Shown here piece after piece: positions 8,230-31,738 of a stretch of 32,000 bases of DNA. Position 1 is the first letter of the stretch. Each line of letters starts with the position of its first letter. The translations under genes and the position numbers were made by a program. This stretch comes from Akkermansia muciniphila ATCC BAA-835 (lineage in GTDB: Bacteria; Verrucomicrobiota; Verrucomicrobiia; Verrucomicrobiales; Akkermansiaceae). Under the pieces are notes generated by a model. It was not told the DNA's origin. It saw nothing but the letters and a program-made list of their open reading frames with translations, and did not search any database. Location: assembly GCF_000020225.1 (NCBI RefSeq), contig NC_010655.1:390001-422000 (forward strand), read 5' to 3'.

Positions 8230-8790
8230 TCAGGGCACGCGGAACTTCTTGATCTCGTTGGGGAAGTTGGTGTCCCGCAACACCGTCCCGGAGGGATACG
8301 GCTTATTGGTGCTCCTGTTCAAAATCTTGATCTTCTTGGTACGGTCATACGGGCTGACCACCACCGTGGGATCCGCCGTAGGCCACGCCACCGGGATGGA
8401 AGAAGAAGCGGGAGGTTCCACAGGCCTGGGGGCGGCAATGCCGGAACCGGAGGAGTCACCCACGGGATTAGGAACGACGGGCTTGGGAACAACGGGAGCC
8501 GGAGGCGTGATATTGTTGGCCCCGCCCACCATATTGCTGATGGTTCCGGAATTGGTCCGGGCGGGGTCCGGGTTAAACCCGGAATTCTGCCCGGCCATCG
8601 GGTCCAGAGAATTTTCACGCTGAATATCATTCAACAGGCTATTGCCCTGGACGCCCATAGCGCCGGACGGATAGACATTTTCCGTAGGATAAATGCCGAT
8701 GGGGCGTTCATTCACGCGCTCCGTTTCACAGGAAGGCAGAAGAATTGCACCTGCGGCCAGCAGCACGCCTATCGTCGGGGAAGTATTCAT
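8230..8790 (-). CDS. Pro-rich hypothetical lipoprotein, ~186 aa
   Basis: The internal Met at 8790 gives MNTSPTIGVLLAAGAILLPSC, a signal peptide plus lipobox (LPSC). The mature part is low-complexity and Pro-rich (PPAPVVPKPVVPNPV). I recognise no family. Confidence 0.6.
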   Translation of the reverse strand: MNTSPTIGVLLAAGAILLPSCETERVNERPIGIYPTENVYPSGAMGVQGNSLLNDIQRENSLDPMAGQNSGFNPDPARTNSGTISNMVGGANNITPPAPVVPKPVVPNPVGDSSGSGIAAPRPVEPPASSSIPVAWPTADPTVVVSPYDRTKKIKILNRSTNKPYPSGTVLRDTNFPNEIKKFRVP

Positions 8791-9266
8791 ATAATCTCTC
8801 TTCAGGTGATAGCTTTCTGCCAGCATCCTACGGTCCCGCAACCTCATGTCAACCATAAAGCCTGTTTGCCGAACCTCTTCATGACAAGGAATCTTCGGCT
8901 TCCGTCCCCGCACGCGGGCAAAGCCGCCCGAACAAACGCGCTCGCCGCATTTCTTTTACCCATCGGCAGCGCCGGAACAGCCCTGGACGGACTCAACAAA
9001 AGGAAGAGCCGGAAAACGGCACAAAGACGGAACAACCATCACTCTTTATCAACAAGCGCTCCAACAGGTACTCCTGCCGCAGCCTTATTCGGAAGAAGCC
9101 GGAGCTCCATTCCGTTCGCCAGCGGGAAGAGACGCTTCCCTCCCGAACATGCCGCACCGGCCTCCGGCCCTCCCCTGCCCGCCCTCTTCAAAAAACCGGA
9201 AAAAACGCTTCCCCCTCTTCCCGGGAACGCGCCTGTACGGGAACAGATTATCCTTCCCTACCCCCC

Positions 9267-11933: not shown

Positions 11934-12390
11934 CTCCTCGTCAACCCGTCTTCCCATCCCGCAGTATGTAATGACGCTGGCGCACGCGGCAGCCCTGCGG
12001 TCGGAGGACCCGTACCGCAAGGTGGGAGCCGCCGCCCTGGATGCGGACAACCGCGTCATCGGCACCGCCTACAACGGACTGTATCCCGGATTCAAGGCTC
12101 AGGACACCTTCTGGGCCAGCCGGGAAGAACGCCAGAAATACATGCTGCATGCGGAAATCAACCTGTGCAGCCTGTTCCGGAGGGGGGAAGCCAAGGTGGT
12201 GGCATGCACTACGATGCCCTGTACCTCATGCATGCAGGCGCTGTGTGCCCATGGCGTAAAAACCATTTATTACTGTGAGCCTTATGACAAATCCGAAGCT
12301 CCTGCCATCGCCAGCCTTTACGGCGTGGAACTGATCCAGGTTACGGACTATCCTCTCAGCCGGCACTTCCCCCTTGTCCTGGACAGCTGA
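11923..12390 (+). CDS. dCMP (CMP/dCMP-type zinc) deaminase, 155 aa
   Basis: The zinc-binding motifs HAEINL and PCTSCMQAL are present at the canonical spacing. The start overlaps the upstream stop by 11 nt (ATGAACAATAA). Confidence 0.85.
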   Translation: MNNNSSSTRLPIPQYVMTLAHAAALRSEDPYRKVGAAALDADNRVIGTAYNGLYPGFKAQDTFWASREERQKYMLHAEINLCSLFRRGEAKVVACTTMPCTSCMQALCAHGVKTIYYCEPYDKSEAPAIASLYGVELIQVTDYPLSRHFPLVLDS

Positions 12391-12401
12391 TGCCCGGAAA
12401 A

Positions 12402-12863
12402 TCAATCCCGGTGTACGCGGCATGTCCAACCAGCCATGGAGCGGGGAACGCCGTCAATGGCAGGGTCCAAATCAAGACCGGTTTCCGTAATGGTGCCCGA
12501 AGTAATGACGCCCGCATTCCGCCCGGCGTCGTCAAAGGCAATGTTCACATTCGCCATGGTACAGGCGGAGCTGCTGTTGGCTGCCGGAGCAATATTCAAT
12601 ACGCCGGCATTCTCCCCGCTATTGAACCGGTACGTATAAACCCCGTCGTACACGGCTCTTGTATCCATTCTGATAACATCCACGTCCTGCCCGCTGAACT
12701 GAAGCTGGAATAAGATGCTTCCTCCCTCAAACAGGCTTACCTGCTGTCCGCTCAGGGAAGTGTTCCCGTCGTCTCCGGATTTTCCCGAACCTCCGCCGCA
12801 CCCGGACAACAATCCGCACACCGTCACAGGAATCAGCAACAAGACAGGGAACAACTTTTTCAT
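12402..12863 (-). CDS. Small hypothetical lipoprotein (family member 1), ~153 aa
   Basis: The Met at 12863 gives MKKLFPVLLLIPVTVCGLLSGC-GGGSG, a signal peptide plus lipobox. The mature part is beta-rich and shares features with the ORFs at 29403 and 29947. Confidence 0.6.
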   Translation of the reverse strand: MKKLFPVLLLIPVTVCGLLSGCGGGSGKSGDDGNTSLSGQQVSLFEGGSILFQLQFSGQDVDVIRMDTRAVYDGVYTYRFNSGENAGVLNIAPAANSSSACTMANVNIAFDDAGRNAGVITSGTITETGLDLDPAIDGVPRSMAGWTCRVHRD

Positions 12864-12945
12864 TCCCGGAAAAATGCACAACAGAAAACCACAAGTCAAG
12901 TATACTCAACTATTATTGCATTTTTCCAACATTTTTTAACATCAC

Positions 12946-12973
12946 AAAAAAAACCGCCTGTTTTCACAGGCGG
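12946..12973 (-). terminator. Rho-independent terminator of the OsmC-family gene
   Basis: The 8-bp stem ccgcctgt (12954-12961) pairs with acaggcgg (12966-12973) around a 4-nt loop. On the minus strand it is followed by a run of 8 U (A8 at 12946-12953 on the plus strand). It lies 23 nt downstream of the stop at 12996. Confidence 0.8.
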
Positions 12974-12995
12974 TCTCAAGAAAACACGGAAGCGG

Positions 12996-13403
12996 TCAGC
13001 CAACCCACTTCCAGGTAATGGGTATTTCAATATCAGGGTGCAGGCTGTGCTTGACCGGGCAGCTCAGAGCAGCCTGTTCCAGCAGCTTCCTGTCCGGATA
13101 ATCGGACGGAAGAGGAACGGTAATGACGACTTCCAGCTTGCCGATACGGCGGGGATCCGCATTCATGTGTTTGGCCACTTCCACCGTCATGCCTTCCAGA
13201 TTAATCCCCTTACGTTCGGCAACAATACCCATGATCGTGCTCATGCAGCCGGCAAGCGCCGCTCCTACCAGGTCCGTGGGGGAAAAGGACTCGCCCTTGC
13301 CGTTGTTGTCCACGGGGGCATCCGTGGAAAGCGTGGCCCCGGAAGGTTCATGAACCATGGAACAATGGAGGCCGCCCTCGTACGTCGTTTTAGTTTTTAC
13401 CAT
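12996..13403 (-). CDS. OsmC/Ohr-family peroxiredoxin-like protein, 135 aa
   Basis: The size and the two conserved Cys contexts (LAGCMSTIM and ALSCPVKHSL) match the OsmC family. Confidence 0.85.
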   Translation of the reverse strand: MVKTKTTYEGGLHCSMVHEPSGATLSTDAPVDNNGKGESFSPTDLVGAALAGCMSTIMGIVAERKGINLEGMTVEVAKHMNADPRRIGKLEVVITVPLPSDYPDRKLLEQAALSCPVKHSLHPDIEIPITWKWVG

Positions 13404-13466
13404 GGCCTTATTTTATACAAGGCTCCCCGCCATGCAACACACAAACATTGAATCCCCCCGTTCTTT

Positions 13467-15797
13467 ATGGTAACCGCCTTTGCTATGAGAAACTTTTTGA
13501 AAGCAGCCGTCGGCTGCCTGGGCATGATCGCCGGGTGTTTCAGTACGGGGGAGGCCCAGGACTTCGGAGGCATGAGCTTCGGGGAAGCGGGAAACTTTGG
13601 TCCGCCCCAGACATCCGGTTCCTCCAAGGCCACTGTCACCTCCTATGGAGAAGCCTCCTTCGTCATCGTGACGGAGCTGGCGCTGCCGGACCACTGGCAC
13701 GTTTACTATAAAAATCCGGGAACCGTGGGCCTTCCCATGGAAGCCGCTCTCCAGCCTGTGCCCGGCTTCCGGGTGGAAGGCCCCTTCTGGCAAATCCCGG
13801 AACTGGAGAAAGGGCTTGTGGATTTTTACGGATACAGCGGAAAAGCCAAAATGGCGTTCCGGGTGACTCCGGAAAAGGATGCCCCCCCGGAAGCGACGTT
13901 CATCACCACCATGACATGGCAAATGTGCGCGGAACAGTGCGCCGCCCCGGAAACCAAAAACTTCAGCGTCACACTGAAGCGCGGAGACGGGCAGACAGCC
14001 CCTGACGCGGCGGAATTGACCGGAAACATGGCAGGGCTTGCCGCCCCCGACTGGGCGGAAGGGCTGAAAGCCCGGATTTCCCAGGAAGGGAAAACCGTCA
14101 CCCTGCACCTCAGGACAAACGGACGCCCCGTTCCGCAGGATTCCGTCTATTTTTTCTGCAATCAGGGGGAAATCAACCCTACCACTCCCCAAATCTTCAA
14201 AAAACTGGATGACTCCAATTATGAGCTGTCCATGCAATTCAATGACACCACGGACGGCCTTTACCCCAACAACCTGCCGGATGCAGACAGGGGAAAACCG
14301 CTGACCAGCCTTTCCGGCATCCTGCGCGCCGGCAGGGAAGGCATCATCATCACCGCGGACGACCGCCCCTTCTCCGGGGAATCTCAGTCAACAGCCGCCG
14401 GAACGGAATCCGCCCCGGAACCTTCCGCTTCCATCCCCGCTCCTCCGCTGATGGGCCTGGGGGAAATCATGTTCTTCATGTTCATCGGCGGCATCATCCT
14501 CAATGTCATGCCGTGCGTCTTCCCGGTAATCGGCCTCAAGATTATGGGATTCGTCCAGCTGGGAGGGGGGGAACGGAAAAAAGTGCTGGCCCACTCCCTT
14601 ACCTTCGTACTGGGCATCCTGATTTCTTTCTGGCTCATTACTGCCATTCTGATTGCGCTGAAAGCGAACATGTTTGACTGGAGCGCCCCAGCCGGCCCCG
14701 GCGTGTTCAGCGGAGACTTCTGGCTGGGCCGCGGCGCGGAGGGCGTTGTCAACTGGGCGTTCTGGTTTGAAAACCCCTGGGTGAATTTCTGCCTGCTGGG
14801 CCTGATGCTCGCCATGGGGCTGAGCATGTTCGGCGTCTTTGAAATAGGCGTCAAAGCCACGACCATGGGCAACGACCTCCAGCACCGGAAGGGTTATGCC
14901 GGCTCCTTCTGGTCCGGCGCCCTGGCTACGGTCATCTCCACCCCGTGCAGCGCTCCGTTCCTGGGCCAGGCTATCGGCGCGGCCATGCTCCAGCCGCCGC
15001 TGGGCATCGTGCTCTGCCTGACCATGATGGGGCTTGGAATGTCCCTTCCCTACATCATTCTGGGAGCCTTTCCCGTCCTGACCAGATACCTGCCCAAACC
15101 CGGCGCATGGATGGAATCCTTCAAGCAGTCCATGTCCTTCCTGATGTTCGGCACCGCAGCCTACTTCCTCTGGATTTACATGGCCTTCTTTGATGCAGAA
15201 AACCATCCTCAGGACATCCTGTTCCTCTTCTTCGGGCTTGTGCTGTTTTCCATGGCCTTTTGGGTATACGGCAGATGGTGCCCCATGTACCGCAGCAGAA
15301 AGTCCCGCATCACGGGAGGCATCTTCTCCGTAATCTTCCTGCTGGCCGGCCTGTACTACATGCTCCCGCCGGAAGGAGCAGCCTGGTTCGGCCGCGGTTC
15401 CGCCCCCGGGGCGGCGGAGTCCGCCGCCGCAGCACCCTCCCTTCAGGAGGAAGGAAACATCTGGATACCCTGGAGCCCGGAAGCCATGCAGGCCGCCCTG
15501 GACGGAGGGAAACCCGTTTATGTGGACTTCACGGCCCGCTGGTGCTCCACCTGCCAGGTCAACAAGGCCTCCTATACGGATGAAGTGCTGGCCGCTTTCA
15601 AAAAATATGGCATCGTCATGATGAAAGCGGACAAGACCCGCACGAACCCCGCCATTGACCAGGAACTTAAAAACCTGGGGCGCACGGCCGTTCCCGTCAA
15701 TGCCCTGTATCTTCCCGGCAGAAAACCAGCCGTCACCAGGGAACTCCTGTCCCCGGCCTACCTGCTGGAATTCCTGGAAAAGGAAATGGAACGCTAG
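13467..15797 (+). CDS. DsbD/ScsB-family thiol:disulfide interchange (protein-disulfide reductase) protein, 776 aa
   Basis: It has a signal peptide, then a long N-terminal periplasmic region (WQMCAEQC). The CcdA-like membrane core carries the two conserved Cys (NVMPCVFPV and STPCSAPF). The C-terminal thioredoxin domain has WCSTC. The start could be Met7 (13485). Confidence 0.9.
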   Translation: MVTAFAMRNFLKAAVGCLGMIAGCFSTGEAQDFGGMSFGEAGNFGPPQTSGSSKATVTSYGEASFVIVTELALPDHWHVYYKNPGTVGLPMEAALQPVPGFRVEGPFWQIPELEKGLVDFYGYSGKAKMAFRVTPEKDAPPEATFITTMTWQMCAEQCAAPETKNFSVTLKRGDGQTAPDAAELTGNMAGLAAPDWAEGLKARISQEGKTVTLHLRTNGRPVPQDSVYFFCNQGEINPTTPQIFKKLDDSNYELSMQFNDTTDGLYPNNLPDADRGKPLTSLSGILRAGREGIIITADDRPFSGESQSTAAGTESAPEPSASIPAPPLMGLGEIMFFMFIGGIILNVMPCVFPVIGLKIMGFVQLGGGERKKVLAHSLTFVLGILISFWLITAILIALKANMFDWSAPAGPGVFSGDFWLGRGAEGVVNWAFWFENPWVNFCLLGLMLAMGLSMFGVFEIGVKATTMGNDLQHRKGYAGSFWSGALATVISTPCSAPFLGQAIGAAMLQPPLGIVLCLTMMGLGMSLPYIILGAFPVLTRYLPKPGAWMESFKQSMSFLMFGTAAYFLWIYMAFFDAENHPQDILFLFFGLVLFSMAFWVYGRWCPMYRSRKSRITGGIFSVIFLLAGLYYMLPPEGAAWFGRGSAPGAAESAAAAPSLQEEGNIWIPWSPEAMQAALDGGKPVYVDFTARWCSTCQVNKASYTDEVLAAFKKYGIVMMKADKTRTNPAIDQELKNLGRTAVPVNALYLPGRKPAVTRELLSPAYLLEFLEKEMER

Positions 15798-15812
15798 GAC
15801 GTCTTGTCATGC

Positions 15813-15831
15813 GGGCGGCAATCCGCCGCCC
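15813..15831. terminator. GC-rich hairpin between convergent genes; possible bidirectional terminator lacking a U-tract
   Basis: The 7-bp stem gggcggc (15813-15819) pairs with gccgccc (15825-15831) around the loop aatcc. It lies between the dsbD-like stop (15797) and the SGNH hydrolase stop (15873). There is no T/A run on either side, hence the low confidence. Confidence 0.3.
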
Positions 15832-15872
15832 TCCCTCCAGGCCATGCCGGGCAGCAGGAAAACGGGGAAAGC

Positions 15873-16604
15873 TTACCCTTCCCCGTTCAACAGCGGCAGC
15901 AACGCGTCCGCCCATGCCTGATAACCCTTCTCCGTTAAATGGACATGATCCTTGAACATGCCCTCCCTGAACGTCCCGTCCGGCTTCAGCAGGCTGCCGT
16001 TAATGGATAAAATAGTGGTCCTCGGAAGCTCAAGCCTGCGCAGCAAACGGTTAATCTCCTCCTGCCTCCTGCGCAATGGGCTATCGGGATCGGGGCCGTA
16101 GGGAGTCACCTCCATCAGGATCAAACGGGTCTCCGGAAATCTCTTCAGCAGGCGTACGGCTATCTCCCGGATGCCCTTCACCGTCTGCTCCGCGGGCTGC
16201 CGCCCTTTCCACAGGCCGATATTATTCGTCCCGGCCAGCAAAATGCAATAGCGCGGAGAAGTTCTGACTGCCAGTCCCGTATCTTCCATGCGCCACAGCA
16301 TGCTGTCCGTCCTGTCCCCGCTCACTCCGAAGTTGACCGCCTTCATCGGCACGAACAGCCTCTTCCACAGCGCGGAACCTTCCCGTTCCCAGCATTCTGT
16401 AATGGAATCCCCCACGAACAGAATGCCGCATTCCTTCCCCAGCAAATTTTCCCGGACCGCCTTGTAACGGGCCGGAACCCACGGCTGGGTATTCAGTTTG
16501 GGAACATCGGGCGGATCCGGAACCTCATCTGAAGGTGCCGCATACACGGCAGAAGAAGCAAGGGACAACAATAAAAAAGCGGCGGAAAAAACAGAAGCAT
16601 TCAT
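15873..16604 (-). CDS. Secreted SGNH/GDSL-family hydrolase (esterase/acylhydrolase), 243 aa
   Basis: It has the signal peptide MNASVFSAAFLLLSLASSAVYA. Block I is FVGDSITE (catalytic Ser), block III is AGTNNIG, and the C-terminal DHVHLT supplies the catalytic D-x-x-H. Confidence 0.8.
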   Translation of the reverse strand: MNASVFSAAFLLLSLASSAVYAAPSDEVPDPPDVPKLNTQPWVPARYKAVRENLLGKECGILFVGDSITECWEREGSALWKRLFVPMKAVNFGVSGDRTDSMLWRMEDTGLAVRTSPRYCILLAGTNNIGLWKGRQPAEQTVKGIREIAVRLLKRFPETRLILMEVTPYGPDPDSPLRRRQEEINRLLRRLELPRTTILSINGSLLKPDGTFREGMFKDHVHLTEKGYQAWADALLPLLNGEG

Positions 16605-19752: not shown

Positions 19753-20010
19753 AAATAACGGTGAAAGAGTAATCCGATTGCGGCTTCAAGGCAAGGTTGG
19801 AATCTTGTTAGAACCGGGGCTCCACTCCCCTTTTCCAAGGAAAAGCCAGGGAAGAATCATCCAAAGCCCCGCAAAGAAAATGCGTTGCCTCTGCCATTAT
19901 CGCGTCTTTTCTCTTCCTCTCCGGAAACAGGCCCTCATGCGGAAGAACCCGGCCATGCAGACCGCCATCTTTTTGCGAAGCGCGGCAAACAACAGGCCAT
20001 TTATTCCAGA

Positions 20011-20046
20011 AAAGAAAAAACCGTGCCGCAACCGGATGCGGCACGG
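20011..20046 (-). terminator. Rho-independent terminator after rsfS (end of the ftsH-rsfS unit)
   Basis: A perfect 10-bp stem ccgtgccgca (20021-20030) pairs with tgcggcacgg (20037-20046) around the 6-nt loop accgga. On the minus strand it is followed by UUUUUUCUUU (aaagaaaaaa at 20011-20020 on the plus strand). It lies 22 nt downstream of the rsfS stop. Confidence 0.85.
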
Positions 20047-20067
20047 TGTGAAGTCAGATTGGAGGAA

Positions 20068-20418
20068 TTAATATTCCACCACGGGGGCATCCTTCCACAG
20101 GGTGTCCATTCCGTAGAATTCGCGCGTTTCCTGCCCCATGATGTGAACCATCACGTCAATGTAGTCCACTACGGACCACAATGCCACAGGCGTATCTTCC
20201 ACATAAGTGGGGAGGGCTCCCGCCTTTTCCCGGACGGCTTCTTCCAGCTCCCGGATGACGGCGCGCAGATGGGGGACGGACAACCCCGTGCACACTACCA
20301 TGAAATCCGTCAGGGAAGACATGCCCCGCAAGTCGTACACCCGCACATTTTCGGCCTTGGCGTCATCCGCGGCGCGGGCGCACATCCTGGCCAGTTCCAT
20401 CGCATCGTTGGCTACCAT
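20068..20418 (-). CDS. rsfS: Ribosome silencing factor RsfS (iojap-like), 116 aa
   Basis: The size and the motifs ..VYDLRGMSSLTDFMVVCTG.S..H..A and DYIDVMVHIM..E.REFY..LW are typical of RsfS. It starts 21 nt downstream of ftsH. Confidence 0.9.
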   Translation of the reverse strand: MVANDAMELARMCARAADDAKAENVRVYDLRGMSSLTDFMVVCTGLSVPHLRAVIRELEEAVREKAGALPTYVEDTPVALWSVVDYIDVMVHIMGQETREFYGMDTLWKDAPVVEY

Positions 20419-20439
20419 ATTCGATTCGTTTCTATTGAA

Positions 20440-22890
20440 TTATTTCTTTTCTCCGCCGTCCTTGCCGAACTCATCAACGGGATTGTAGGAGAAGGGGGCC
20501 CGTTCCGCCTGTTCCAGTTCCTCTTCCATCTTCCGTTCTTCAGCGCCGTCCGCGCGGGTCTCTTCAGCTTCTTTCTTCTCGTTATGGCCGGAATCATCCT
20601 TCCCGGGCTGTTCCTCCACTTCGGAAGGCATGGGGGGCGGAGTCACCCTGGCGGGAGGGTTTTTCATTTCCCCGTATTCCAGAATATCCATGACCTGGGA
20701 ACCTTCCAGCGTTTCAAACTCCATCAGGGCCTCCGTCAGAATGTCCAGCTTGTCCCGGTTTTCCGTCAGGATGGCCATGGCGCGTTCATAAGCGCTGTCC
20801 ACCAGGAAGCGGACTTCCGAGTCAATCAGCTCCGCCGTGGATTCGGAATAATTGCGGGAACGCGTCCCCAGGTCGCGGGCAATATAAACTTCTCCCTGGT
20901 GTTCTCCGTACTCAATCAGCCCCAGTTTTTCGCTCATGCCGAATTCGCACACCATGCGCCGCGCCAGGTTGGTGGCGCTCTTGATGTCTCCGGTAGCACC
21001 GCTGGTCACATCACCAAAAACGATTTGTTCGGCGCAGCGCCCGCCCATCGCCACGACGAGCTGGTCCAGCATTTCGGACCGGAGCTGGTGCATCTTGTCG
21101 TCGGAAGGAAGCCACATGGTCATGCCGAGGGCCCCGCCGCGGGGAACAATGGTCACCCGGTGCAGCGGCTCGCTGTGCGGTGTTTTCAACAGGCAGATGG
21201 CATGCCCCGCCTCATGCACGGCAGTAATGCGGCGCCCCCGTTCGTTAATCGCCAGGCTGCGGCGTTCACGCCCCCAGCTGACCTTGTCGCGGGCTTCTTC
21301 CAATTCGGCCTCCGTAATCTCCTTCAGCCCCTTGCGGGCGGCCAGCAGGGCGGCTTCATTGACCAGGTTGGCCAGCTGGGCACCGGAAAAGCCGGACGTG
21401 CCGCGGGCAATCCGCTCAAAGCTGACTCCGGGCGCCATCTTCACTTTTCTGGCATGCACCTGCAGGATCTGTTCGCGCCCCCGGACGTCCGGCAGGTTCA
21501 CCACCACCTGCCGGTCGAAGCGGCCGGGACGCAGCAGGGCCGGGTCCAGAATGTCCGCACGGTTGGTGGCGGCAATCACGATTACATTGGAGTTGTTTTC
21601 AAAACCGTCCATCTCCACCAGCAGGGCGTTCAGCGTTTGTTCCCGCTCGTCATTGCCGCCGCCCATGCCGTAACCGCGCTGGCGGCCCACGGCGTCAATT
21701 TCATCAATGAAAATCAGGCTGGGCGCCGTCCTTTTGGCCTGTTCAAACATATCGCGGACACGGCTTGCCCCCACCCCCACGAACATTTCCACAAAATCCG
21801 AGCCGCTGATGGAATAGAAGGAAGCGTTGGACTCCCCGGCAATGGCACGCGCCAGCAGAGTCTTGCCCGTACCGGGCGCCCCGACCATCAGCACGCCGCG
21901 GGGAATGGTGGCGCCCAGATCGCGGAATTTTTCCGGATTGCGCAGAAACTCCACCAGTTCCCACACTTCCTCCTTGGCTTCGCTGATACCGGCCACATCC
22001 TTGAACGTCACCTTGTTCTTGTCCGGGGAGATGAGGCGCGCCCGGCTTTTGCCGAAGCTCATGGCCCCCCGGGCCCCGCCGCTCTGCGCGCGGAACATGA
22101 AGAACAAAATCACCAGAATGAGCACGATGGGCAGCAGATTCAGCAGAATGCCGCCCCAGGAACCGGATTCACGCTTGAACTTCGTATCCGGCCCCAGCAG
22201 CTGCTTGACGCGGTCTCCCTGGAACTCCAGGGTAAAAGGCACTTCCACACGTTCAAAACGCTGTTTGTCCACGGAGGCGTCTCCCGTAGCCGCGGGCCAG
22301 ATGCGGGTGACAATCTGTCCGACCAGCACGTTCTGGTTGCCGTCTTCCGCCAGGATGATGCCGTCCTTTCCTCCGGCGATGCGGCCTTCCAGGGCCAGGC
22401 GGTTGAATTCTGGCACGGAAAGCTTCTGAGCTCCCTCAGGAATGAGGGAAACATTCTTTCCCTCTTCCGTCCGGTACGGGCTCTCCACCACCCTGTAGCC
22501 GGAAAGTTCATTCAGCAAAGGCTTGTCGCGGTCCGGAAGGGACATGGAATAAGTCAGCGCAAAGGGGGTCATTTCCACCTTCGGCTGAATTTCCTTCCTG
22601 TACACCAGCGCGTGAATAACGCCTTCGGAACCGTTCTCGCTCAGCACCACTTCCACGGGGGCCTTGGGGTCGTTCAGCACCACGCGCCCCGCCTTATACT
22701 GGGCTTCAAAGGATTCCAGATTTTCCTTGCGGGGGCCCAACCCGAAAGATTCAGGGGTGAAAAAGCCAAACGCAAGGACGCCTACAATGAGAAGTACCAT
22801 GACCCACACGCCCCAGTTGGGGGATTCGGGCCTGCCGGAGCCGGGAAATTTGGGAGGACGGGGAGGACTGGGTGGCATTCTGTCAGACAT
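20440..22890 (-). CDS. ftsH: ATP-dependent zinc metalloprotease FtsH, 816 aa
   Basis: There are two TM helices (~26-44 and ~245-266). The AAA module has Walker A GAPGTGKT, Walker [10 protein letters not shown] and an SRH ([18 protein letters not shown]). The zinc motif is HEAGHA. Confidence 0.97.
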
Positions 22891-23054
22891 AATGTGGTTA
22901 GCACACAGAAGTTAATGAATAGGGCGGCATGATACGCGAGTCCTTGTAAAATAAAACTTTTTTCCGAGACATGCCATACAGCCGCCGCAGAACGGGCCCG
23001 CACCGTTCCGGGCCGGGGCTCTTCCCGGCAATAAGGCCTTAACCGGCGCAGGCC

Positions 23055-23852
23055 TCATTCCCGCTTTCTTTTTCTGCGCCGCCCCTCATGGTTCGCGCTT
23101 TCTCCGTTCATGCGCTGCCGGAGACGCCGCTTCCACTGGGGCATCCTTTCTTCCGCCGGGGCCGCATGGGAACCGGCATCTTCCCGGCTCTTTTCCTGCC
23201 AGGCCCCCTCCTCCTGCGCGTTCAGCCGCTCCCGCCGCCTCTGCTCCTGGATTTCCGCCAATTTTCTGGCGCGGCGGATTTCCACCCGCTTGCTCACCTC
23301 CCCGTGGGCGGAGGTCACGCGCCAGGGGCCGATGCGGCGGGGATAGGTAATGGGTGCGCAAACCAGTTCCGCATCCAGAAAACGCATGGACCCCACCAGC
23401 AGGTTCTTGACATTCGCCAGCAGGCCGCCGTCCGTCCAGACGCCGCCCATGCCCATTTCCAGCAGAAAAGCCAGATGCAGCGTCTCCGCTCCCGAGGCCT
23501 GAATGGAAAAATCCCTCAGGGAAATGCCCTCCGCCGGCTCCTCGTCCGGAGCGGCCACGGAAGCGGCCCGGAGGAGGAACATCGTATCCCGAACCTTGCG
23601 GCTCAGGGCGCAGACCAGTTCCCCCACCTTGGGCCGAGCGTCAAAACGGTAATCCTTCACTTCCACCAGCCACAGATCCCGGCGTTCCGGATGATACAGC
23701 AGAAAATCCATTTCCTTGCATCCCCCGCAGAAATTCTGCGCCTGCCGGGCATAATAATCCGAACATTCAATGCGGCACACCACGTAGCCTTCATCGATCC
23801 AGAAACGGTGGACACCCTCCACGTAATAAGCTTTTGACGGCTTATGACTCAT
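23055..23852 (-). CDS. Hypothetical protein with a Cys4 cluster, a PD-(D/E)xK nuclease-like core and an Arg/Lys/Glu-rich C-terminal tail, 265 aa; candidate effector of a two-gene system
   Basis: The Cys cluster is C26-x3-C30-x11-C42-x2-C45. D49 sits in MDFLLY and E64-V-K66 in LWLVEVKD, the spacing and hydrophobic context of restriction-endonuclease-fold cores. The last ~80 aa are highly charged (..RRARKLAEIQEQRRRERL...KRRLRQR...GRRRKRKRE). The start lies inside the 3' end of the upstream ATPase gene. The ORF itself is solid; the functional call is inferred from motifs only. Confidence 0.6.
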   Translation of the reverse strand: MSHKPSKAYYVEGVHRFWIDEGYVVCRIECSDYYARQAQNFCGGCKEMDFLLYHPERRDLWLVEVKDYRFDARPKVGELVCALSRKVRDTMFLLRAASVAAPDEEPAEGISLRDFSIQASGAETLHLAFLLEMGMGGVWTDGGLLANVKNLLVGSMRFLDAELVCAPITYPRRIGPWRVTSAHGEVSKRVEIRRARKLAEIQEQRRRERLNAQEEGAWQEKSREDAGSHAAPAEERMPQWKRRLRQRMNGESANHEGRRRKRKRE

Positions 23853-24918
23853 AACTCAGCTTCAAATACCTGTCCGCCTGTTCGATTTCCGCTTCAAGAG
23901 ACTCGACAGGTCCCACGTCCTCCAGGGATTCCCCCCAGGACACCCTTACCCCGGAACGTTCCCCCCGCGGCACGCTCATCCCGAAAAACTTTCTCTGCAC
24001 CATGGCATTGCGGGGTTCGGAAAGCTGAATCATCAGCTCCCGCAGCAGGAACAGGCTGTGGGAGGACAAAATAACCTGCACCCCCGTCTTGGCAAGCCCC
24101 GTCAGGGTTTTCACCAGCACGGGCAGGTGGGAGGCGTTCAGATTCATTTCCGGTTCATCCCAAAACAGGACGGAACCTTTTTTCACGGAACCGTTCCGGA
24201 TCAGGTAGCTCAGCGTTCCCAGCCTTTTGAATCCTTCCGCCACCAGGCTCATTTCTATCGGCTGCTGTCCGGGACGCTGCAAAAAGAACCGCCCGTCACG
24301 CTTCACCACCTTCCCCCCGATGATTTTTTCCAGCCTGGCAACCACGCGCCCGGCATCCGTACTGATGGGCTCCGCTTCCGCCTCCATATCCAGATAACGG
24401 CAGAGGTCCCAACTGCCGCCGTCCAGAAATTCGGGGAATCTGCTTCCCACCTGCACAAAACTCGGATAAATGGTCAGCACCTCCCGCGCTGCCAGGAACA
24501 CCACCGGCACGTTCAGAAAACGCCGGGGCATTTCCCGGATGCTCAGCCCCTCCTCTTCATGCCCCGCCTGGAAATCAAACACCAGGTTCCCCATGCCCTC
24601 CGGCACGCCGTCCCCCTCCATGGAGGCCTCCACGCGCGCATGGGCGTTTCCCCGGTTCCGGGCCGTCAGCCCGGCCAGCCCGCGGGACGCGAACACCCGC
24701 ATCAGGTCTTTTCTGAGCCGCTGCTCCTCCGCCCATTTTTCCGGCAGGGATTTTCTCCCCCCGTCAGCGCTCCACTTGGCCACGGTATAGCATAATTTCA
24801 GCAAATGGCTTTTGCCGGAATCATTGCCTCCCACCACCACATTGATTCCCGGAACAAACTCAAAATGCTCTCTCCCGGGAAACACCGTCACGCCGCTCAC
24901 CAGTAGGTCATGTATCAT
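23842..24918 (-). CDS. Small ABC/SMC-like ATPase (AAA_15/AAA_21-class) with no fused effector domain, 358 aa; candidate sensor/motor of a two-gene system
   Basis: From the Met at 24918 the protein begins MIHDLLVSGVTVFPGREHFEFVPGINVVVGGNDSGKSHLLK, with Walker A at G30-S37. It has the signature-like SLVAEGFKRL (224-233), Walker B VLFWDEPE (250-257) and H-loop SSHS (285-288). The track ORF reaches 25272, but those extra 118 codons run across the menB start and look non-protein-like. Confidence 0.8.
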   Translation of the reverse strand: MIHDLLVSGVTVFPGREHFEFVPGINVVVGGNDSGKSHLLKLCYTVAKWSADGGRKSLPEKWAEEQRLRKDLMRVFASRGLAGLTARNRGNAHARVEASMEGDGVPEGMGNLVFDFQAGHEEEGLSIREMPRRFLNVPVVFLAAREVLTIYPSFVQVGSRFPEFLDGGSWDLCRYLDMEAEAEPISTDAGRVVARLEKIIGGKVVKRDGRFFLQRPGQQPIEMSLVAEGFKRLGTLSYLIRNGSVKKGSVLFWDEPEMNLNASHLPVLVKTLTGLAKTGVQVILSSHSLFLLRELMIQLSEPRNAMVQRKFFGMSVPRGERSGVRVSWGESLEDVGPVESLEAEIEQADRYLKLSYES

Positions 24919-25129
24919 ACCGTTCCCAATGTAGCACAGAAGCGCAGGCCGTAAATGACAAAAGCCGCCAGCTGCCGGCCACCGGGGAGCCTGCCGGAAA
25001 AACACCGGAAACAACGGGGAAAACGCATACGGCCGCAGCACCGCCCCATCCCCCGCAGGTTCCGGACATACCCGGAAGGCGGCGCATTTTAGGCTTCCCA
25101 TTGCCGGGCGCCTTATTAAAGTAATCCGT

Positions 25130-25954
25130 ATGAGCGCACAATGGATCACCGCCAAGGAATACACGGACATCAAGTATGAAACAACGGACAACGGCAGCAT
25201 CGCAAAAATCACGATCAACCGCCCCCACGTCCGCAATGCGTTCCGTCCCCTGACCGTGCATGAAATGCTCAACGCCCTGAACGCCGCTCATGAAGACCCC
25301 AAGGTGGGCGTGGTCATCCTGACCGGGGAAGGCCCGGACGCTTTCTGCTCCGGAGGCGACCAGAAAGTGCGCGGAAATGCCGGCTACATCGGTGAAGACG
25401 GCGTGCCGCGCCTGAACATTCTGGACGTGCAGCGCACCATCCGCACCATGCCCAAGCCCGTCGTCGCCATGGTGGCCGGATACGCCATCGGCGGAGGTCA
25501 CGTCCTCCACGTCGTCTGTGACCTCACCATTGCCGCGGACAACGCCAAATTCGGACAGACAGGGCCCAAAGTGGGCTCTTTTGACGGAGGCCTCGGCTCC
25601 TCCTACCTGGCGCGCATTGTGGGCCAGAAAAAAGCGCGGGAAATCTGGTACCTGTGCAGGCAGTACGATGCCCGGCAGGCGCTGGACATGGGCCTGGTCA
25701 ATACCGTGGTTCCCCTGGAGGACCTGGAGGAGGAAACGCTCTCCTGGTGCCGCCAGATGCTCCGCCACAGCCCTCTGGCCCTGCGCTGCCTGAAGGCATC
25801 CCTGAACGCCGACTGCGACGGGCAGATGGGCCTGCTGGACCTGGCCGGCAACGCCACCCTGCTCTATTATATGAGCGAGGAAGCGAAGGAAGGCAAAAAC
25901 GCCTTCGTTGAAAAACGCGCTCCGGATTTTTCCAAATTCCCCAGACTTCCGTAA
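25130..25954 (+). CDS. menB: 1,4-dihydroxy-2-naphthoyl-CoA synthase, 274 aa
   Basis: It has the crotonase fold with MenB-specific blocks: [58 protein letters not shown] and the C-terminal [10 protein letters not shown]. Confidence 0.95.
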
Positions 25955-25973
25955 CCTCCCCCTCCTCCGCACC

Positions 25974-26804
25974 ATGGCACCCAGCTCCGACAATGAAGGC
26001 GCCCCCCGGAACGGCACCGCCGGCAGGGAATCCCTGCGCGACCTGCCGGAACATGAAAACATCGTGGAGCATTTCTACGATCCGGAAGATCAGGGCTCCC
26101 GGGAAAAACCCGTCCGTGAAAAAACGCCTTTCTCCCTGATAGGCAATCTCATCTTCCTGCTGACCATAGCCATTCTGGCCGCTATTGCCTGGCTGGTTTA
26201 CTCCTCCTGGTGCCCGCAGAAAACGGACGACCTGCCCGGCTTCCGCCAAAGGGAAAACGCCCCGGATATCCCCAGAATCCTGAAACAGGCCATCAACAGG
26301 GACGCCTCCGTCTCGTTCTCGGAAGAAGACATCAACCGCTACCTGGCTTCCTCCATCCATCCCCAGCAGCACGGCACCCTGGCCATCTTCGCCACCAACC
26401 CGGCGGCTGGCATCCGTCTGCACGGCGGCAAGGAACGGCCGGACGGAACCATCGGGGAAGGATACATGGAAATCATCATCGAACGCTATACGGGCATCGA
26501 CTCCCGCCAGACGATTTCCCTGTTCCTGACGCCCTTCCAATCCCTGGATCCGCACAATTACATGGCGGTGCAGACCCGCTTCGAATTCTACAATGACGAA
26601 ACGCTGCCGGGAGGAATCCACGTGGGGGGCACCATCGGCAGCCTTTCCGTTCCCCAGGGTTACATGATTTTTCTCCTGCCCGCGTTTGAAAACCTGCTCC
26701 AGGCCTACCTGCCGCTTATCCACATGATTGAAGAAAGCGGCATGGGCATCCATATCAGTGAAGGCAGGCTGAACCTGACGCCTCCGCAAAAGCGCACGCT
26801 GTAG
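25974..26804 (+). CDS. Hypothetical single-pass membrane protein, ~276 aa
   Basis: The preferred Met at 25974 lies 19 nt after the menB stop. The longer ORF from 25908 would overlap menB. It has an acidic N-terminal ~70 aa, one TM helix (FSLIGNLIFLLTIAILAAIAWLVYSSW) and a ~180-aa extracytoplasmic domain. I recognise no motifs. Confidence 0.55.
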   Translation: MAPSSDNEGAPRNGTAGRESLRDLPEHENIVEHFYDPEDQGSREKPVREKTPFSLIGNLIFLLTIAILAAIAWLVYSSWCPQKTDDLPGFRQRENAPDIPRILKQAINRDASVSFSEEDINRYLASSIHPQQHGTLAIFATNPAAGIRLHGGKERPDGTIGEGYMEIIIERYTGIDSRQTISLFLTPFQSLDPHNYMAVQTRFEFYNDETLPGGIHVGGTIGSLSVPQGYMIFLLPAFENLLQAYLPLIHMIEESGMGIHISEGRLNLTPPQKRTL

Positions 26805-26874: not shown

Positions 26875-27903
26875 TCAATTTTTCTCCAGATCCCTGACCA
26901 TCAAAGTCATATACTCCTCAGGCCAGGAATGGGTAATCTGACCCGCATCATTGAAAACCGCCACCAGGCGGATGGAATCCCTCCCATCTGAAAGCACCAG
27001 CACGGTTTCATCCTTTTCAAAATCATAACGGGGCTTGCCCAATTTGAATGCCGCACTCCTGCGGTCCGTCCTCAGCCACGCGCGCGCCTGCTCCATCGTC
27101 AGGCCACGCAGCGCCCGGGCATCCCTGAAAACGCGCCGCGCCGCATTCATCGCCGCAGGGCTGGAAACCACCATGCCATCCCGGAACGGGCGGGTTCCCC
27201 ACATGCGGTCAATATCCCGGTCCAGCGCGCCGCCCATCCCCCCGGAAAGGAAAAACACGGCTGCGGGCCAAGCCAGGAAAATACCCGCAGCCCATATTGC
27301 CAGCCGTTTGCGGCTTCTGGAAAGAGCCGCTATTCCCTGGGCTATTTTCCCCCATTTTTCTACCAGTTCCCGGTCCGCATGCCCGAACAGGAAATTCACC
27401 TGCCTGCGTTCTATGCCGCCCCGCAGTTCAGCCACCGTCTTTCCCTTTTCGGGCGCCAGATCCTCCAGCGTAGGGCTTCCTTCCACGAAGTGGCGGAAAA
27501 TCCTGGGCCACAGCACGGGAATAACCGCAAACCGGATTGCAAGCAGAACCAGGCTGCCCACCAGGCAGCCGCTTATCAACAGAATGTCAAACGAACGGCT
27601 GAAAAAATAGTCCGGATTCCACATCCAGATAAAAGGAGCCGCCAGATACATCCCCAGGGAAAATAGGCACCATGACCAGACTATGGCGGAAAAACGGCTG
27701 GCCGCCACAACCACCCCCAGCAGGAACAAAAAGGCCCCCAGGGCAATTCCCCACGGAAACGCCCCGTAAATGGCGGCCGGAAAAGCCAGAATCATCAATG
27801 CCGTACCCGCGGGCTGCCGAACTTTTTGCATATCCGGAACATAGCACAAGCCCTTGAAAGCATCAAGAAAGGAAGCCCCCGCAGTCACACAGGGACTGTT
27901 CAT
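26875..27903 (-). CDS. Hypothetical polytopic membrane protein, 342 aa
   Basis: It has several hydrophobic helices in the N-terminal half, a charged loop, another TM helix (LAIWAAGIFLAWPAAVFFL) and a ~120-aa soluble C-terminal domain. It starts 11 nt after the TolC-like gene. An alternative start is Met25 at 27831. Confidence 0.55.
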   Translation of the reverse strand: MNSPCVTAGASFLDAFKGLCYVPDMQKVRQPAGTALMILAFPAAIYGAFPWGIALGAFLFLLGVVVAASRFSAIVWSWCLFSLGMYLAAPFIWMWNPDYFFSRSFDILLISGCLVGSLVLLAIRFAVIPVLWPRIFRHFVEGSPTLEDLAPEKGKTVAELRGGIERRQVNFLFGHADRELVEKWGKIAQGIAALSRSRKRLAIWAAGIFLAWPAAVFFLSGGMGGALDRDIDRMWGTRPFRDGMVVSSPAAMNAARRVFRDARALRGLTMEQARAWLRTDRRSAAFKLGKPRYDFEKDETVLVLSDGRDSIRLVAVFNDAGQITHSWPEEYMTLMVRDLEKN

Positions 27904-29402: not shown

Positions 29403-29918
29403 ATGATGCGTCCTTTTCTTACCTCTTTGTCCGCGGCCTGCTGCTCCCTCGGCATTCTTACGCTGGCCCAATGCGGCGGAAGCAGTTCCGATGCCGAGGG
29501 CCTGGCGCCCTCCACCATCGGCAGCAAGGTGTTAAACATGCAGGTAACAGGCATTACGGATGCCGCCATAACGCTTCCCGCCATTTTTGACATGACCACC
29601 GGTGACAACGGGGCATTCATCATCCAGACGCAAGGGGAAAACATGAACATGTGGAACGGGGCAGGCATTTATTCCTACACCAAAACCGGGAAAAACACTG
29701 CGGAGCTGAGCCTGTCCTACAACAGAAACAGCGGTTCGTCCTCGGAACCCAACACCCTCATGAGCACCATCAGGATTCCCCAGTTAACCTTTGAAAACGC
29801 CACCCATGCTTCTTCCGGGGAAGGCGGCGCCAGCATTTCCTACATGCAAGCGCAAGACAGGACACCCATCCCCATCGACGGCATCACCATCAGCGTCAAC
29901 ATCATATCCCAGTCATAA
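29403..29918 (+). CDS. Small hypothetical lipoprotein (family member 2), 171 aa
   Basis: The N-terminus is MMRPFLTSLSAACCSLGILTLAQC-GGSSS, a signal peptide. The lipobox is atypical (Gln at -1), but the post-Cys GGSSS is shared with the paralogues. YSYTKTGKNTAELSL resembles YTYRFNSGENAGVLNI in the 12402 ORF. Confidence 0.6.
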   Translation: MMRPFLTSLSAACCSLGILTLAQCGGSSSDAEGLAPSTIGSKVLNMQVTGITDAAITLPAIFDMTTGDNGAFIIQTQGENMNMWNGAGIYSYTKTGKNTAELSLSYNRNSGSSSEPNTLMSTIRIPQLTFENATHASSGEGGASISYMQAQDRTPIPIDGITISVNIISQS

Positions 29919-29946: not shown

Positions 29947-30429
29947 ATGAATTCCCGCCTTTATATTCCCGCTTTAATTACTCTCGGGCTTGGGCTCCTC
30001 TCCGGCTGCGGCGGATCCAGTTCCAGCGAACAGGCCTATCTTCCCATTGGTCTTCAGCGCACGTTGGACATCACGCTTCAGGACGGCAAGCCTTACGTCT
30101 TCTCCTTCATCATCGCCTCAGAAAGCACCGCCACCATTTACACCGGAACCAGCCCGGCCGCCTCAACGGCATCCCTTCATGTCGTCAACTACAAACCAGC
30201 TTCCGACTCTGCGGAACAAATAGGCTTTTACTGGTCGTCCAATGACGGGGAAACAACCAGCAATCTGGATGCCCTCGTTGTCCTGTATAATCCCCAGAAT
30301 ATTTCCAAAGGCATCGGTTCTGCCACCTGCAGCGTCAGAGACGCCGAATATACTGAAACGGAAACCCAGCAGGATAACTGCCAGGCGGTCATCAGGGATT
30401 TCAGAGTGCCCCCCAGCTCTGATCAATAA
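29947..30429 (+). CDS. Small hypothetical lipoprotein (family member 3), ~160 aa
   Basis: The internal Met at 29947 gives MNSRLYIPALITLGLGLLSGC-GGSSSS, a canonical lipobox. The longer track ORF from 29791 overlaps the preceding gene and is Pro/Ser-rich junk. Confidence 0.65.
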   Translation: MNSRLYIPALITLGLGLLSGCGGSSSSEQAYLPIGLQRTLDITLQDGKPYVFSFIIASESTATIYTGTSPAASTASLHVVNYKPASDSAEQIGFYWSSNDGETTSNLDALVVLYNPQNISKGIGSATCSVRDAEYTETETQQDNCQAVIRDFRVPPSSDQ

Positions 30430-30446
30430 GCCCTTTCTTCCTACCT

Positions 30447-30481
30447 CCCTTCCCGCCCCCATGGCGGGAAGGGATTTTTTT
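30447..30481 (+). terminator. Rho-independent terminator after the tandem lipoprotein genes
   Basis: The 11-bp stem cccttcccgcc (30447-30457) pairs with ggcgggaaggg (30463-30473) around the 5-nt loop cccat. It is followed by a T7 run (30475-30481) and starts 18 nt after the stop. Confidence 0.85.
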
Positions 30482-30592
30482 ATCCATTATCTCTTCCTGC
30501 CGGAACAGAGACGGCCTTTCCCCCAGACCGCCGGCAAAGGCGGACATGCCGGAACGCAGACAAAACCGGGAACAGCCCCGAAGCCCCATCAC

Positions 30593-31738
30593 TTACTTAA
30601 GCACTTTCCCTATGGGGCGGCAGGCGGAAAAGGCAACCGGAATGGAGGAAAGAAGAACACACCCCGCCAGGGAAATTCCCAGCAGCCACAAATCCTGCCG
30701 TATATCGGCATAAGTCAGGACGGAGTTTCCCAGCTTAAAGAATTCCCCCAATACGATTCTCTGGGTTTTCATGAACGCCCAGACGGCTCCCGCAAAGGAA
30801 ACGCCAATCAGAAACGCGTTTTCCACGATAAACGCCATAATCAGCAGTACAGGACGCACCCCGAAGCTCTTCATCAGCGTATAGACATATTCATTCTGAC
30901 GGAATTCCATGGATGCCAGGGCTGTAAGCAGAATGCCGACGATCACGGCGATGCCGAGGGAAAACCCAGTCCTGCACTCCGTCTGGTTGCCCATCAGCAC
31001 TTCCAGCCTGTCAAGCAGCCCTACGTGAGTCTGAACCATGGTCATGCTGCCGTCATAACGCACCATGTTGTTCAGCACTTCTTCTATGCCCCGAATGCGG
31101 GCCGCCGTCATTTCATGCACCCGGATGATGTAGCGGCAATTTTCCACGGGGACCTCCTGTCCGGAACTGAAAGTTCCTTCCGGGGCCAAAATGACTCCGG
31201 AAGGATACAGCCTGCCCAGCAAATGACCCTCCGGCAGAGGGGAGGCATTCAGGGAAAAATCAAAATCCGCTATGGTAACCGTACAAGGCCCCGCCTGCAA
31301 CGGGCTCCGGGAGGGATTGTACAGGAGGACGGTAGCCACGTCCTCCAACCCAAGCGCGGAAAGAAAGGAACAGGACTCCATGTTGTATTCCAGGATGGGG
31401 AATACTGTCTTGCCCACGCGCGCCACGCCCGCACGGGCATCATTCAGCACCAGGACGTCGCAGCCATACAGGGAAGGCAGTTCATGCTGCAGCAAATTTT
31501 TCTTGGAAGGCTCACCGTCGCGCACGGTATCAAAAACAATAATCAGGTCCGCCCCGTTCTTCCTGATTTCATCATGCAGCATTTTGGCGGAGAGGACATA
31601 ATTGGCGAGAAAAGAGAGCGCGCACAGGGAAAGGAAGAAGGCCACCAGAATCCGTGAAAGGGGGCTGGCCGGGCGTTCCTTCCAACGGTGGAGAGTATCT
31701 TTAAAGAGATACAGACAGGTTAAAATCAATGATTTCAT
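30593..31738 (-). CDS. ABC transporter permease, FtsX/MacB-LolE type, 381 aa
   Basis: It has an N-terminal TM helix, a ~210-aa extracytoplasmic domain and a C-terminal three-helix FtsX bundle (..[30 protein letters not shown]..). Its start overlaps the upstream ATPase gene. Confidence 0.8.

Follow-up and report, generated by a model that had tools for sequence, protein, structure and literature searches.

HEC-02, or Hma-embedded candidate 2, is a two-gene defence system made up of an ABC ATPase (HEC-02A) and a NERD-like PD-(D/E)xK protein (HEC-02B) that bears the motif (D/E/Q)xK. It was discovered inside Hma systems and cloned from Dickeya dianthicola NCPPB 3534, and in Escherichia coli plaque formation by at least two phages fell by orders of magnitude in its presence, both genes being needed (bioRxiv 10.1101/2024.01.29.577857). 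The same authors surveyed HEC cassettes in all genomes, whether Hma-associated or not, and reported that HEC candidates are generally not enriched near other defence genes (bioRxiv 10.1101/2024.01.29.577857). In PARIS, which also pairs an ATPase with a separate nuclease, the ATPase scaffold sequesters the nuclease until triggered (PMC11464382). Here we compare with these systems a pair of overlapping genes of Akkermansia muciniphila ATCC BAA-835. The pair lies in a 32,000-nucleotide stretch of contig NC_010655.1 (positions 390,001 to 422,000; the window, to which all coordinates below refer) and consists of a gene for a 358-residue ATPase (23842..24918, minus strand) and a gene for a 265-residue partner protein (23055..23852, minus strand), each an open reading frame (ORF). 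The ATPase is identical to GenBank ACD04189.1 and the partner to ACD04188.1 (UniProt B2UMY2), and each exact sequence was found on at least 1000 contigs. Literature searches by accession (B2UMY2, ACD04188/9) found no paper, and a search for a survey of Akkermansia defence systems found nothing relevant.

To assign the pair, both proteins were scanned against PADLOC-DB v2.0.0. The ATPase matched the HEC-02 model PDLC04146 with an E-value of 4e-69, residues 1–354 aligning with positions 1–342 of the 344 in the model, and it also matched the HEC-02 ATPase models PDLC04213 (6e-61) and PDLC04214 (2e-41). The next-best family was AriA, with a partial match at 5e-17; PD-T4-4_A, NsnB and GajA also scored far below HEC-02. 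The partner matched PDLC04145 at 1.2e-15 over residues 11–105 only, which amounts to 36% of the protein and 55% of the model, and two other HEC-02 small-subunit models matched weakly, centred on the ExK motif. BLASTP comparison with the validated Dickeya pair (WP_024108366.1 and WP_024108365.1, sequences from Table S2 of the preprint) gave 33% identity over 350 residues for the ATPase, end to end (E 2e-56), and 32% over 95 residues of the catalytic region for the partner (E 5e-13). The PADLOC-DB labels of the two best models are reversed with respect to the preprint: PDLC04146, labelled "HEC-02B", is the 344-position ATPase model and PDLC04145, labelled "HEC-02A", the 170-position small-protein model, whereas PDLC04213/04214 (A, ATPase) and PDLC04216-04229 (B, small protein) follow the published naming.

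An earlier, sequence-only reading of this DNA had taken the pair for a stand-alone ABC/SMC-like ATPase and a distinct nuclease of PD-(D/E)xK type; homology to HEC-02 supports that class, and the pair is most probably a defence module. The reading had also held that the effector matched no named system and that the pair was a candidate undescribed system, a claim that has to be given up: both genes match HEC-02 in PADLOC-DB v2.0.0, a system validated in a 2024 preprint. The profile search that the reading had proposed, and whose assignment of both genes to a named system it had listed as counting against novelty, placed both in one such system. With a probability of roughly 0.7, we take the pair to represent the HEC-02 family in A. 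muciniphila, as an anti-phage module that is bicistronic and translationally coupled. Both proteins are homologous to a validated defence system, the ATPase and D/ExK motifs are intact, the two genes are paired in every context examined, and both are under strong purifying selection. We infer that its role is to protect Akkermansia from the phages of this host.

The motifs of the ATPase are those of a complete ABC-type nucleotide-binding protein of the HEC-02 type, as designated from the PADLOC, BLASTP and Pfam results and from the substitution analysis below. A Walker A motif or P-loop, GGNDSGKS, was located by motif position and family alignment at residues 30–37 (24808..24831); the signature-like SLVAEGFKRL, in place of the canonical LSGGQ, occupies residues 224–233 (24220..24249), Walker B and the D-loop (VLFWDEPE) residues 250–257 (24148..24171) and the H-loop (SSHS) residues 285–288 (24055..24066), all on the minus strand. 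Walker A and the signature are separated by 186 residues, and two large inserts lie between them. In an alignment of 10 family sequences, including Dickeya HEC-02A and a homologue embedded in a BREX operon, the invariant residues were N32, G35 and K36 of Walker A, A227-E228-G229 of the signature, L251, F252, W253, D254, E255, P256, E257, N259 and N261, and H287. The C-terminal D-RY residues were likewise invariant in a multiple alignment of the Dickeya pair, the BREX-embedded pair and five further relatives. Pfam detected AAA_21 (7e-17) and AAA_15 (5e-10) only, with SMC_N and AAA_23 below threshold, and found no Toprim, HNH or helicase domain in the protein. The ATPase starts at an ATG at 24918; the reading frame can be extended upstream to a TTG at 25272, but the extension would overlap menB.

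The start codon of the partner lies inside the last codons of the ATPase gene, producing an 11-nt overlap (ATGAGTCATAA; 23842..23852, minus strand) that contains the ATPase stop codon and probably couples translation of the two genes. Close coupling of the two genes is characteristic of the family as a whole: all Akkermansia orthologues have an overlap of 11 nt, and in distant relatives, the Dickeya pair among them, the junction lies between 4 nt of overlap and a gap of 4 nt. The reading frames, the overlap, every motif position and the 186-residue gap given by the sequence-only reading were re-derived where it had put them; the Cys4 cluster, the D49, E64 and K66 residues and the basic tail that it had described in the partner were also found as stated, and its view that the ATPase carries no fused Toprim, HNH or helicase domain agrees with Pfam.

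The first 185 residues of the partner (23298..23852, minus strand) form a nuclease-like domain homologous to the HEC-02 small subunit by PADLOC, BLASTP, profile search and AlphaFold2 modelling. Its putative catalytic core, D49 ... E64-V-K66 (MDFLLY ... LWLVEVKDY; 23655..23708, minus strand), was identified from conservation and from the model, and the same D...ExK residues are present in Dickeya HEC-02B and in the BREX-embedded homologue. Across family alignments little or no variation is seen at E12, D49, E64, K66, D67, K86 and D89; in the alignment of short forms the invariant residues are E12, D49, E64, D67, K86 and E132, and at least 90% of sequences have K66. The partner has no Pfam family at E ≤ 1. 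A weak match to the NCBIfam model HYExAFE (NF038001; E 0.046) covers residues 43–72, exactly the D...ExK region; it was dismissed as noise, or might represent a remote PD-(D/E)xK relative.

To determine how far the homology of the partner extends, a profile of 45 long-form partners was searched against 1.84 billion representative proteins. The search returned 767 relatives, 343 of them at E ≤ 1e-10, and nearly all were 165–185 residues long and matched profile positions ~8–180. Thus the whole N-terminal domain of the partner is homologous to the short-form family. All 41 relatives that were sampled matched PDLC04145 (best 8e-69), and 39 of the 41 matched a second HEC-02 small-subunit model. 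Full-length long forms (~250–270 residues) made up only 2–4 of the representatives; the 80-residue basic tail is therefore a narrow lineage-specific addition, as is the Cys4 cluster. One 3962-residue metagenomic protein (P0153) was rejected as a relative, its E-value of 2.8e-59 being the sum of weak repeat matches to profile positions 44–69. P0153 consists of ~59 near-identical repeats of ~66 residues (…MEMDVVLYEQSNQTIFVMEVQHH…), and its score is therefore a repetition artefact. The BREX-embedded partner from Methylomonas was not significant in pairwise comparison (E 0.47) and was retained as a distant member by its ATPase and the motif alignment only.

On sequence comparison, then, the Akkermansia partner is a rare long form of the HEC-02 small subunit, in which the Cys4 cluster and the tail are new. 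The cluster, C26-x3-C30 ... C42-x2-C45 (23718..23777, minus strand), is a probable structural metal site; two further Cys are at positions 81 and 165. Each of the four is found in no fewer than 90% of the aligned long-form sequences, and Dickeya HEC-02B keeps only the first. All four fall within 20 residues N-terminal to D49. In iron–sulphur (Fe–S) nucleases of the Cas4/AddB/Dna2 type, the nuclease core is stapled by four Cys, one before the catalytic motifs and three after them. An Fe–S staple of this type was rejected for the partner, in which all four Cys are N-terminal to the active site; given this position and the C-x3-C...C-x2-C pattern, the cluster is most simply, and probably, a structural site of the zinc rather than the iron type.

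The basic, helical C-terminal tail (residues 186–265; 23058..23297, minus strand) occurs only in the Akkermansia-type long form and is absent both from validated HEC-02B (169 residues) and from the ~170-residue norm of the family. Its 80 residues include 25 Lys or Arg as against 14 Asp or Glu, the motifs P-x-WK-x-R and G-x-x-x-N-H are conserved, and the AlphaFold2 model has helices at 188–228 (41 residues), 239–248 and 255–264. The tail may bind nucleic acid or mediate oligomerisation or assembly. Some A. muciniphila metagenome variants (P0002, P0003, P0147) have a 356-residue partner, in which the TGA is replaced (…KRKRECGLRR…) and the reading frame continues through the spacer towards ftsH; they carry a naturally occurring stop-loss allele that affects the basic tail.

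These additions raise the possibility that the pair is a truly undescribed two-gene system with only a superficial likeness to HEC-02. The partner exceeds the HEC-02 small subunit by 95 residues and has a Cys4 cluster and a basic tail that the validated protein lacks, and its match to PDLC04145 as a single sequence stops at residue 105, with no Pfam match to add to it. The ATPase, however, is homologous to HEC-02 ATPases from end to end, the catalytic residues and gene order are identical to those of HEC-02, and the long-form profile retrieves short forms over positions 8–180, every one of those sampled matching a HEC-02 small-subunit model by PADLOC. A 176-residue homologue from Verrucomicrobiota (35–36% identity) is moreover intermediate between the two forms, with three of the four Cys (C30 is absent) and no tail. 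An undescribed system is thus refuted at the level of the family, and we consider it highly improbable.

The genomic contexts of more distant relatives were also compared. In all five further distinct contexts (36–56% partner identity) an AAA_21 ATPase gene lies directly upstream of the partner gene. The five neighbourhoods are mutually unrelated, and none is next to ftsH or mutS. In one of them (L013, GCA_964418985.1) the 55%-identical pair is directly upstream of a type I restriction–modification (R-M) system, hsdR, hsdM and hsdS (8766-16499). This R-M system is bracketed by two Phage_integrase genes, resembling an invertible, shufflon-type arrangement of hsdS. ATPase homologues at 27–33% identity were found on plasmids. 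A related pair is located between brxC and pglX of a BREX-1 operon on the Methylomonas koyamae plasmid pLM6 (L018:1225-12933), its partner being 165 residues long, and another lies beside RelE/ParE and PIN toxin–antitoxin (TA) genes on a Pseudanabaena plasmid. The pLM6 operon contains a second extra gene, encoding a PDDEXK nuclease domain, between pglX and pglZ. In Akkermansia the pair adjoins ftsH (see below); because the more distant pairs are never next to ftsH, a functional link to that gene was rejected and the synteny attributed to lineage history. Over long evolutionary distances, the pair behaves as a mobile cassette of two genes, and in a single genus, Akkermansia, it has become fixed.

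The fold of the partner was examined with AlphaFold2. The full-length model had a predicted local distance difference test score (pLDDT) of 88.7, and the model of residues 1–186 a pLDDT of 86.5 and a predicted TM-score of 0.86. D49 is placed just before a strand (50–54) and E64-x-K66 in a second strand (59–67), which is followed by a helix (76–100). In the model, the D...ExK motif on a beta-hairpin and the long helix after it fit a PD-(D/E)xK nuclease, which is the likely fold. A search of the PDB with the partner profile gave a single match, to TRIM5 (E 0.16), which was rejected as spurious. The ATPase as a single sequence had no match in the PDB, and the matches of its profile were limited to the P-loop or Walker B end.

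Several observations weigh against the assignment of the pair to phage defence by a HEC-02-type nuclease. Neither the full-length nor the trimmed domain model had a significant Foldseek match in the PDB (best E 0.059), nor had the trimmed one in BFVD (best E 5e-3); TM-scores were 0.2–0.35. The weak matches were mostly to PD-(D/E)xK proteins (Hjc, Mus81, EcoRV, Shedu and the cap-snatching endonucleases of arenaviruses and bunyaviruses), and also to phage proteins labelled PD-(D/E)XK, RecB-like, Cas4 or restriction endonuclease. As none was significant, the nuclease fold rests on motif, topology and family homology. Pfam gave no NERD match for the partner at E ≤ 1, and four of the 41 sampled relatives had sub-threshold matches (best 0.0077); by the Pfam gathering threshold the partner is outside NERD (PF08378) and is NERD-like only. 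Searches of IMG/VR, of GenBank phages (tblastn) and of PHROGs returned no homologue of the partner. The Akkermansia ATPase and partner are only ~33% identical to the validated Dickeya pair.

Further points of the same kind come from the locus and its history. A Pfam scan of the 20 other main ORFs of the window revealed no defence or mobility gene. To follow the pair within the genus, loci were sampled without regard to its presence, via the lineage-specific N-terminal domain of FtsH and via identical MenB protein. Defence genes are usually patchy in distribution; the site between menB and ftsH was nevertheless occupied by the pair in 6 of 6 Akkermansia species representatives fetched through FtsH, and both genes were intact in all 24 A. 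muciniphila contigs that were read among those fetched through MenB. A seventh, more divergent Akkermansia-like genome, with a 76%-identical partner, has the pair upstream of ftsH and a different gene on the other side. The ratio of nonsynonymous to synonymous substitution (dN/dS; Nei-Gojobori method, Akkermansia species) was 0.03–0.07 for the ATPase and 0.08–0.12 for the partner, compared with 0.06–0.10 for FtsH and 0.03–0.05 for MenB, and the dS of the pair tracked that of the flanking genes. The pair has therefore been inherited vertically under strong purifying selection. Comparison of the ftsH–menB interval had been suggested in the sequence-only reading, and the result, universal presence at this site within Akkermansia, is one that it had listed as telling against its own proposal. 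Universal retention within Akkermansia is nevertheless not a strong argument against a role in defence; distant relatives of the pair also occur in changing contexts.

The same results also fit a rival reading, in which a HEC-02-derived pair has been domesticated and now serves in DNA repair, in the processing of recombination intermediates or in chromosome surveillance rather than against phages. The genes at the locus are all housekeeping genes, among them mutS and an RNase_T-type exonuclease gene; the site is filled in every species and every contig sampled; dN/dS and dS of the pair are indistinguishable from those of FtsH and MenB; and a new role could account for the lineage-specific tail and Cys4 cluster. 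The closest solved relatives of the ATPase by sequence are the heads of Rad50 and SMC proteins, but these match only at the P-loop end, the ATPase lacks coiled-coil arms, and the partner does not resemble Mre11 or SbcD. Isolation from defence genes is typical of HEC candidates, which are generally not enriched near them. More distant relatives stand in five contexts away from ftsH and mutS, one of them by the integrase-flanked type I R-M system, the wider family occurs on plasmids and in BREX, and its sole tested member is a defence system. A purely housekeeping role is accordingly improbable.

A second alternative is that the pair is an addiction module, of the toxin–antitoxin kind, in which a nuclease toxin is held by the ATPase, so that loss of the pair is lethal, and which has no role in defence. 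The overlapping two-gene layout with genes that are always together, the stable retention with no mobility gene, and the related pair among RelE/ParE and PIN TA genes on a plasmid are all consistent with this. Addiction alone, though compatible with purifying selection at housekeeping level on both proteins over the genus, does not explain it, and the validated homologue could be cloned and expressed in E. coli and required both genes for defence. Addiction is also compatible with defence by abortive infection and does not exclude it. As a complete account of the pair we regard it as quite improbable.

If the pair is a HEC-02-type defence module, its mode of action can be proposed from related systems. 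The ATPase would form an ABC-type dimer, similar to the heads of Rad50 and SMC proteins, and would act as sensor and regulator of the PD-(D/E)xK effector. By analogy with PARIS, with Septu and with the proposal of the HEC authors, it would be held in a complex with the nuclease and keep the nuclease silent. The variable inserts of the ATPase would serve as the sensor for a phage-derived trigger, and ATP binding or hydrolysis would then license the nuclease to cut phage DNA or a host target in the manner of abortive infection. PARIS is, by this analogy, a plausible model for how the pair works.

Retention of the long form throughout the genus raises a further possibility, that it is a HEC-02 module turned into a fixed core pair, its Cys4 cluster and tail giving it a target or role different from that of the plasmid-borne and BREX-embedded short forms. 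We hold this tentatively, as unlikely. Such a core pair would either act as an immune sensor of the first line, permanently in place in a host for which few phages are known, or be a domesticated complex for DNA surveillance or repair. A. muciniphila is prominent among human gut symbionts and is being considered as a live therapeutic, and phage resistance bears both on strain stability and on phage-based manipulation. An intact HEC-02-type module in the type strain and in all sampled relatives provides a concrete gene pair for genetics. As a universally retained, constrained variant with an additional Cys4 cluster and tail, it is also a useful point of comparison for the mechanism of HEC-02, for which no trigger, substrate or structure is known, and could help to show whether some defence cassettes turn into core genes.

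The surroundings of the pair in the window are as follows. The genes ftsH and rsfS are downstream on the same strand, followed on that strand by mutS and the RNase_T-type exonuclease gene, and menB is divergent upstream. Thus the pair stands alone between ftsH and menB among housekeeping neighbours, with no mobility gene beside it, as the sequence-only reading had noted and as the scan of the 20 other main ORFs bears out. No tRNA gene was found in the window, and the G+C content of the pair (60%) and that of the window (57.7%) show no compositional break.

Alignment of the spacer between menB and the ATPase gene from seven Akkermansia genomes showed that the middle varies in length and sequence and that the last ~55 nt are kept. 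This conserved segment, directly 5′ of the ATPase start codon (24919..24973, minus strand), probably contains a promoter, leader or ribosome-binding region. On the other side, 164 nt separate the partner stop codon from the start of ftsH (22891-23054). The ~85 nt before ftsH (~22891-22975) are almost invariant in eight Akkermansia genomes and are probably the promoter or leader of ftsH itself, and the half of the spacer next to the partner stop codon is variable in the same genomes. A GC-rich hairpin of 8 bp (~22988-23010) follows the stop codon; it has no T-run and was not called by the terminator scan. Scanning of the spacers flanking the pair for consensus promoters and terminators gave nothing above shuffled expectation. 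We infer that the two genes form a bicistronic unit of their own.

Elsewhere in the window, an ORF with a domain of the chloramphenicol-acetyltransferase (CAT) family (524-1159, minus strand; PF00302, 1.4e-20) adjoins a MacB/FtsX-type ABC exporter pair (1336-4904). Four conserved Akkermansia ORFs have no Pfam family: 25908-26804 (plus strand), 26875-27903 (minus), 29403-29918 (plus) and 30242-31657 (plus). As listed, the first of these runs 47 nt into the 3′ end of menB, but gene callers give it a later start (276 residues in L020-L023), and the longest-ORF rule has probably produced an artefact here. A 1015-residue ORF (19885-22932, plus strand) is antisense to ftsH, and the pair and menB have several ORFs of 245–384 residues running antisense to them or overlapping them. 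Frames of this kind, poor in stop codons and lying opposite genuine genes, are typical of DNA with ~58–60% G+C, and these ORFs were not treated as genes.

Among described systems that combine an ATPase of this class with a nuclease, Gabija GajA and the OLD nucleases are distinct: the 358-residue ATPase ends soon after the H-loop and has no Toprim domain, and the GajA and Old models gave local matches only (1e-5 to 1e-8). Septu (PtuA-PtuB) and its retron-associated relatives share the ATPase-plus-nuclease layout, and PtuA chains are among the best profile matches of the ATPase in the PDB, over the first ~60 residues only (E ~1e-7). The Septu effector, however, is an HNH protein; the window pair has no HNH domain, and no PtuA model was among the 25 top PADLOC matches. 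PARIS (AriA with the Toprim protein AriB) likewise consists of a stand-alone ABC ATPase and a separate nuclease effector, and the AriA model PDLC02980 matched residues 195–292 of the ATPase at 4.8e-17. This match covers only part of the protein and falls short of that to HEC-02 by more than 50 orders of magnitude, AriA chains in the PDB match the ATPase only around the P-loop (E ~2e-4), and the effector of the window pair is PD-(D/E)xK-like, with no match to Toprim.

HEC-01 (ABC ATPase with DUF4276/Toprim) and HEC-03 (ABC ATPase with PIN) are sister systems from the same study, with related ATPases that carry different inserts. Their partner domains are different and their HMM (hidden Markov model) scores far lower; HEC-01A models matched the window ATPase weakly, at 4e-7. 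NERD nucleases (PF08378; the NERD-REase of PglW and Nhi-type proteins) resemble the partner in having D...ExK on a beta-hairpin within a core of the restriction-endonuclease type. The HEC authors aligned their HEC-02B model with a NERD model (bioRxiv 10.1101/2024.01.29.577857), and one source names the A. massiliensis orthologue of the partner a NERD domain-containing protein.

The closest system is HEC-02 itself. Both it and the Akkermansia pair consist of two adjacent genes on the same strand, ATPase first, overlapping or abutting and with no other domain. The ATPases are homologous over their full length and share Walker A, the AEG signature, FWDEPE-N-N, the H-loop and the C-terminal DRY, and the small proteins have the same E...D...ExKD...K..D residues. 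The Akkermansia partner differs in its length, 265 residues against 169 in Dickeya, and in its added 80-residue basic tail and Cys4 cluster. The Akkermansia pair also stands alone among housekeeping genes rather than in Hma, BREX or R-M, the setting in which HEC-02 was discovered and which membership does not require, and it is genus-wide and syntenic, with constraint like that of housekeeping genes. The system to which the pair belongs is therefore already known, and what is new is its retention throughout a genus at one site and the long form of its partner.

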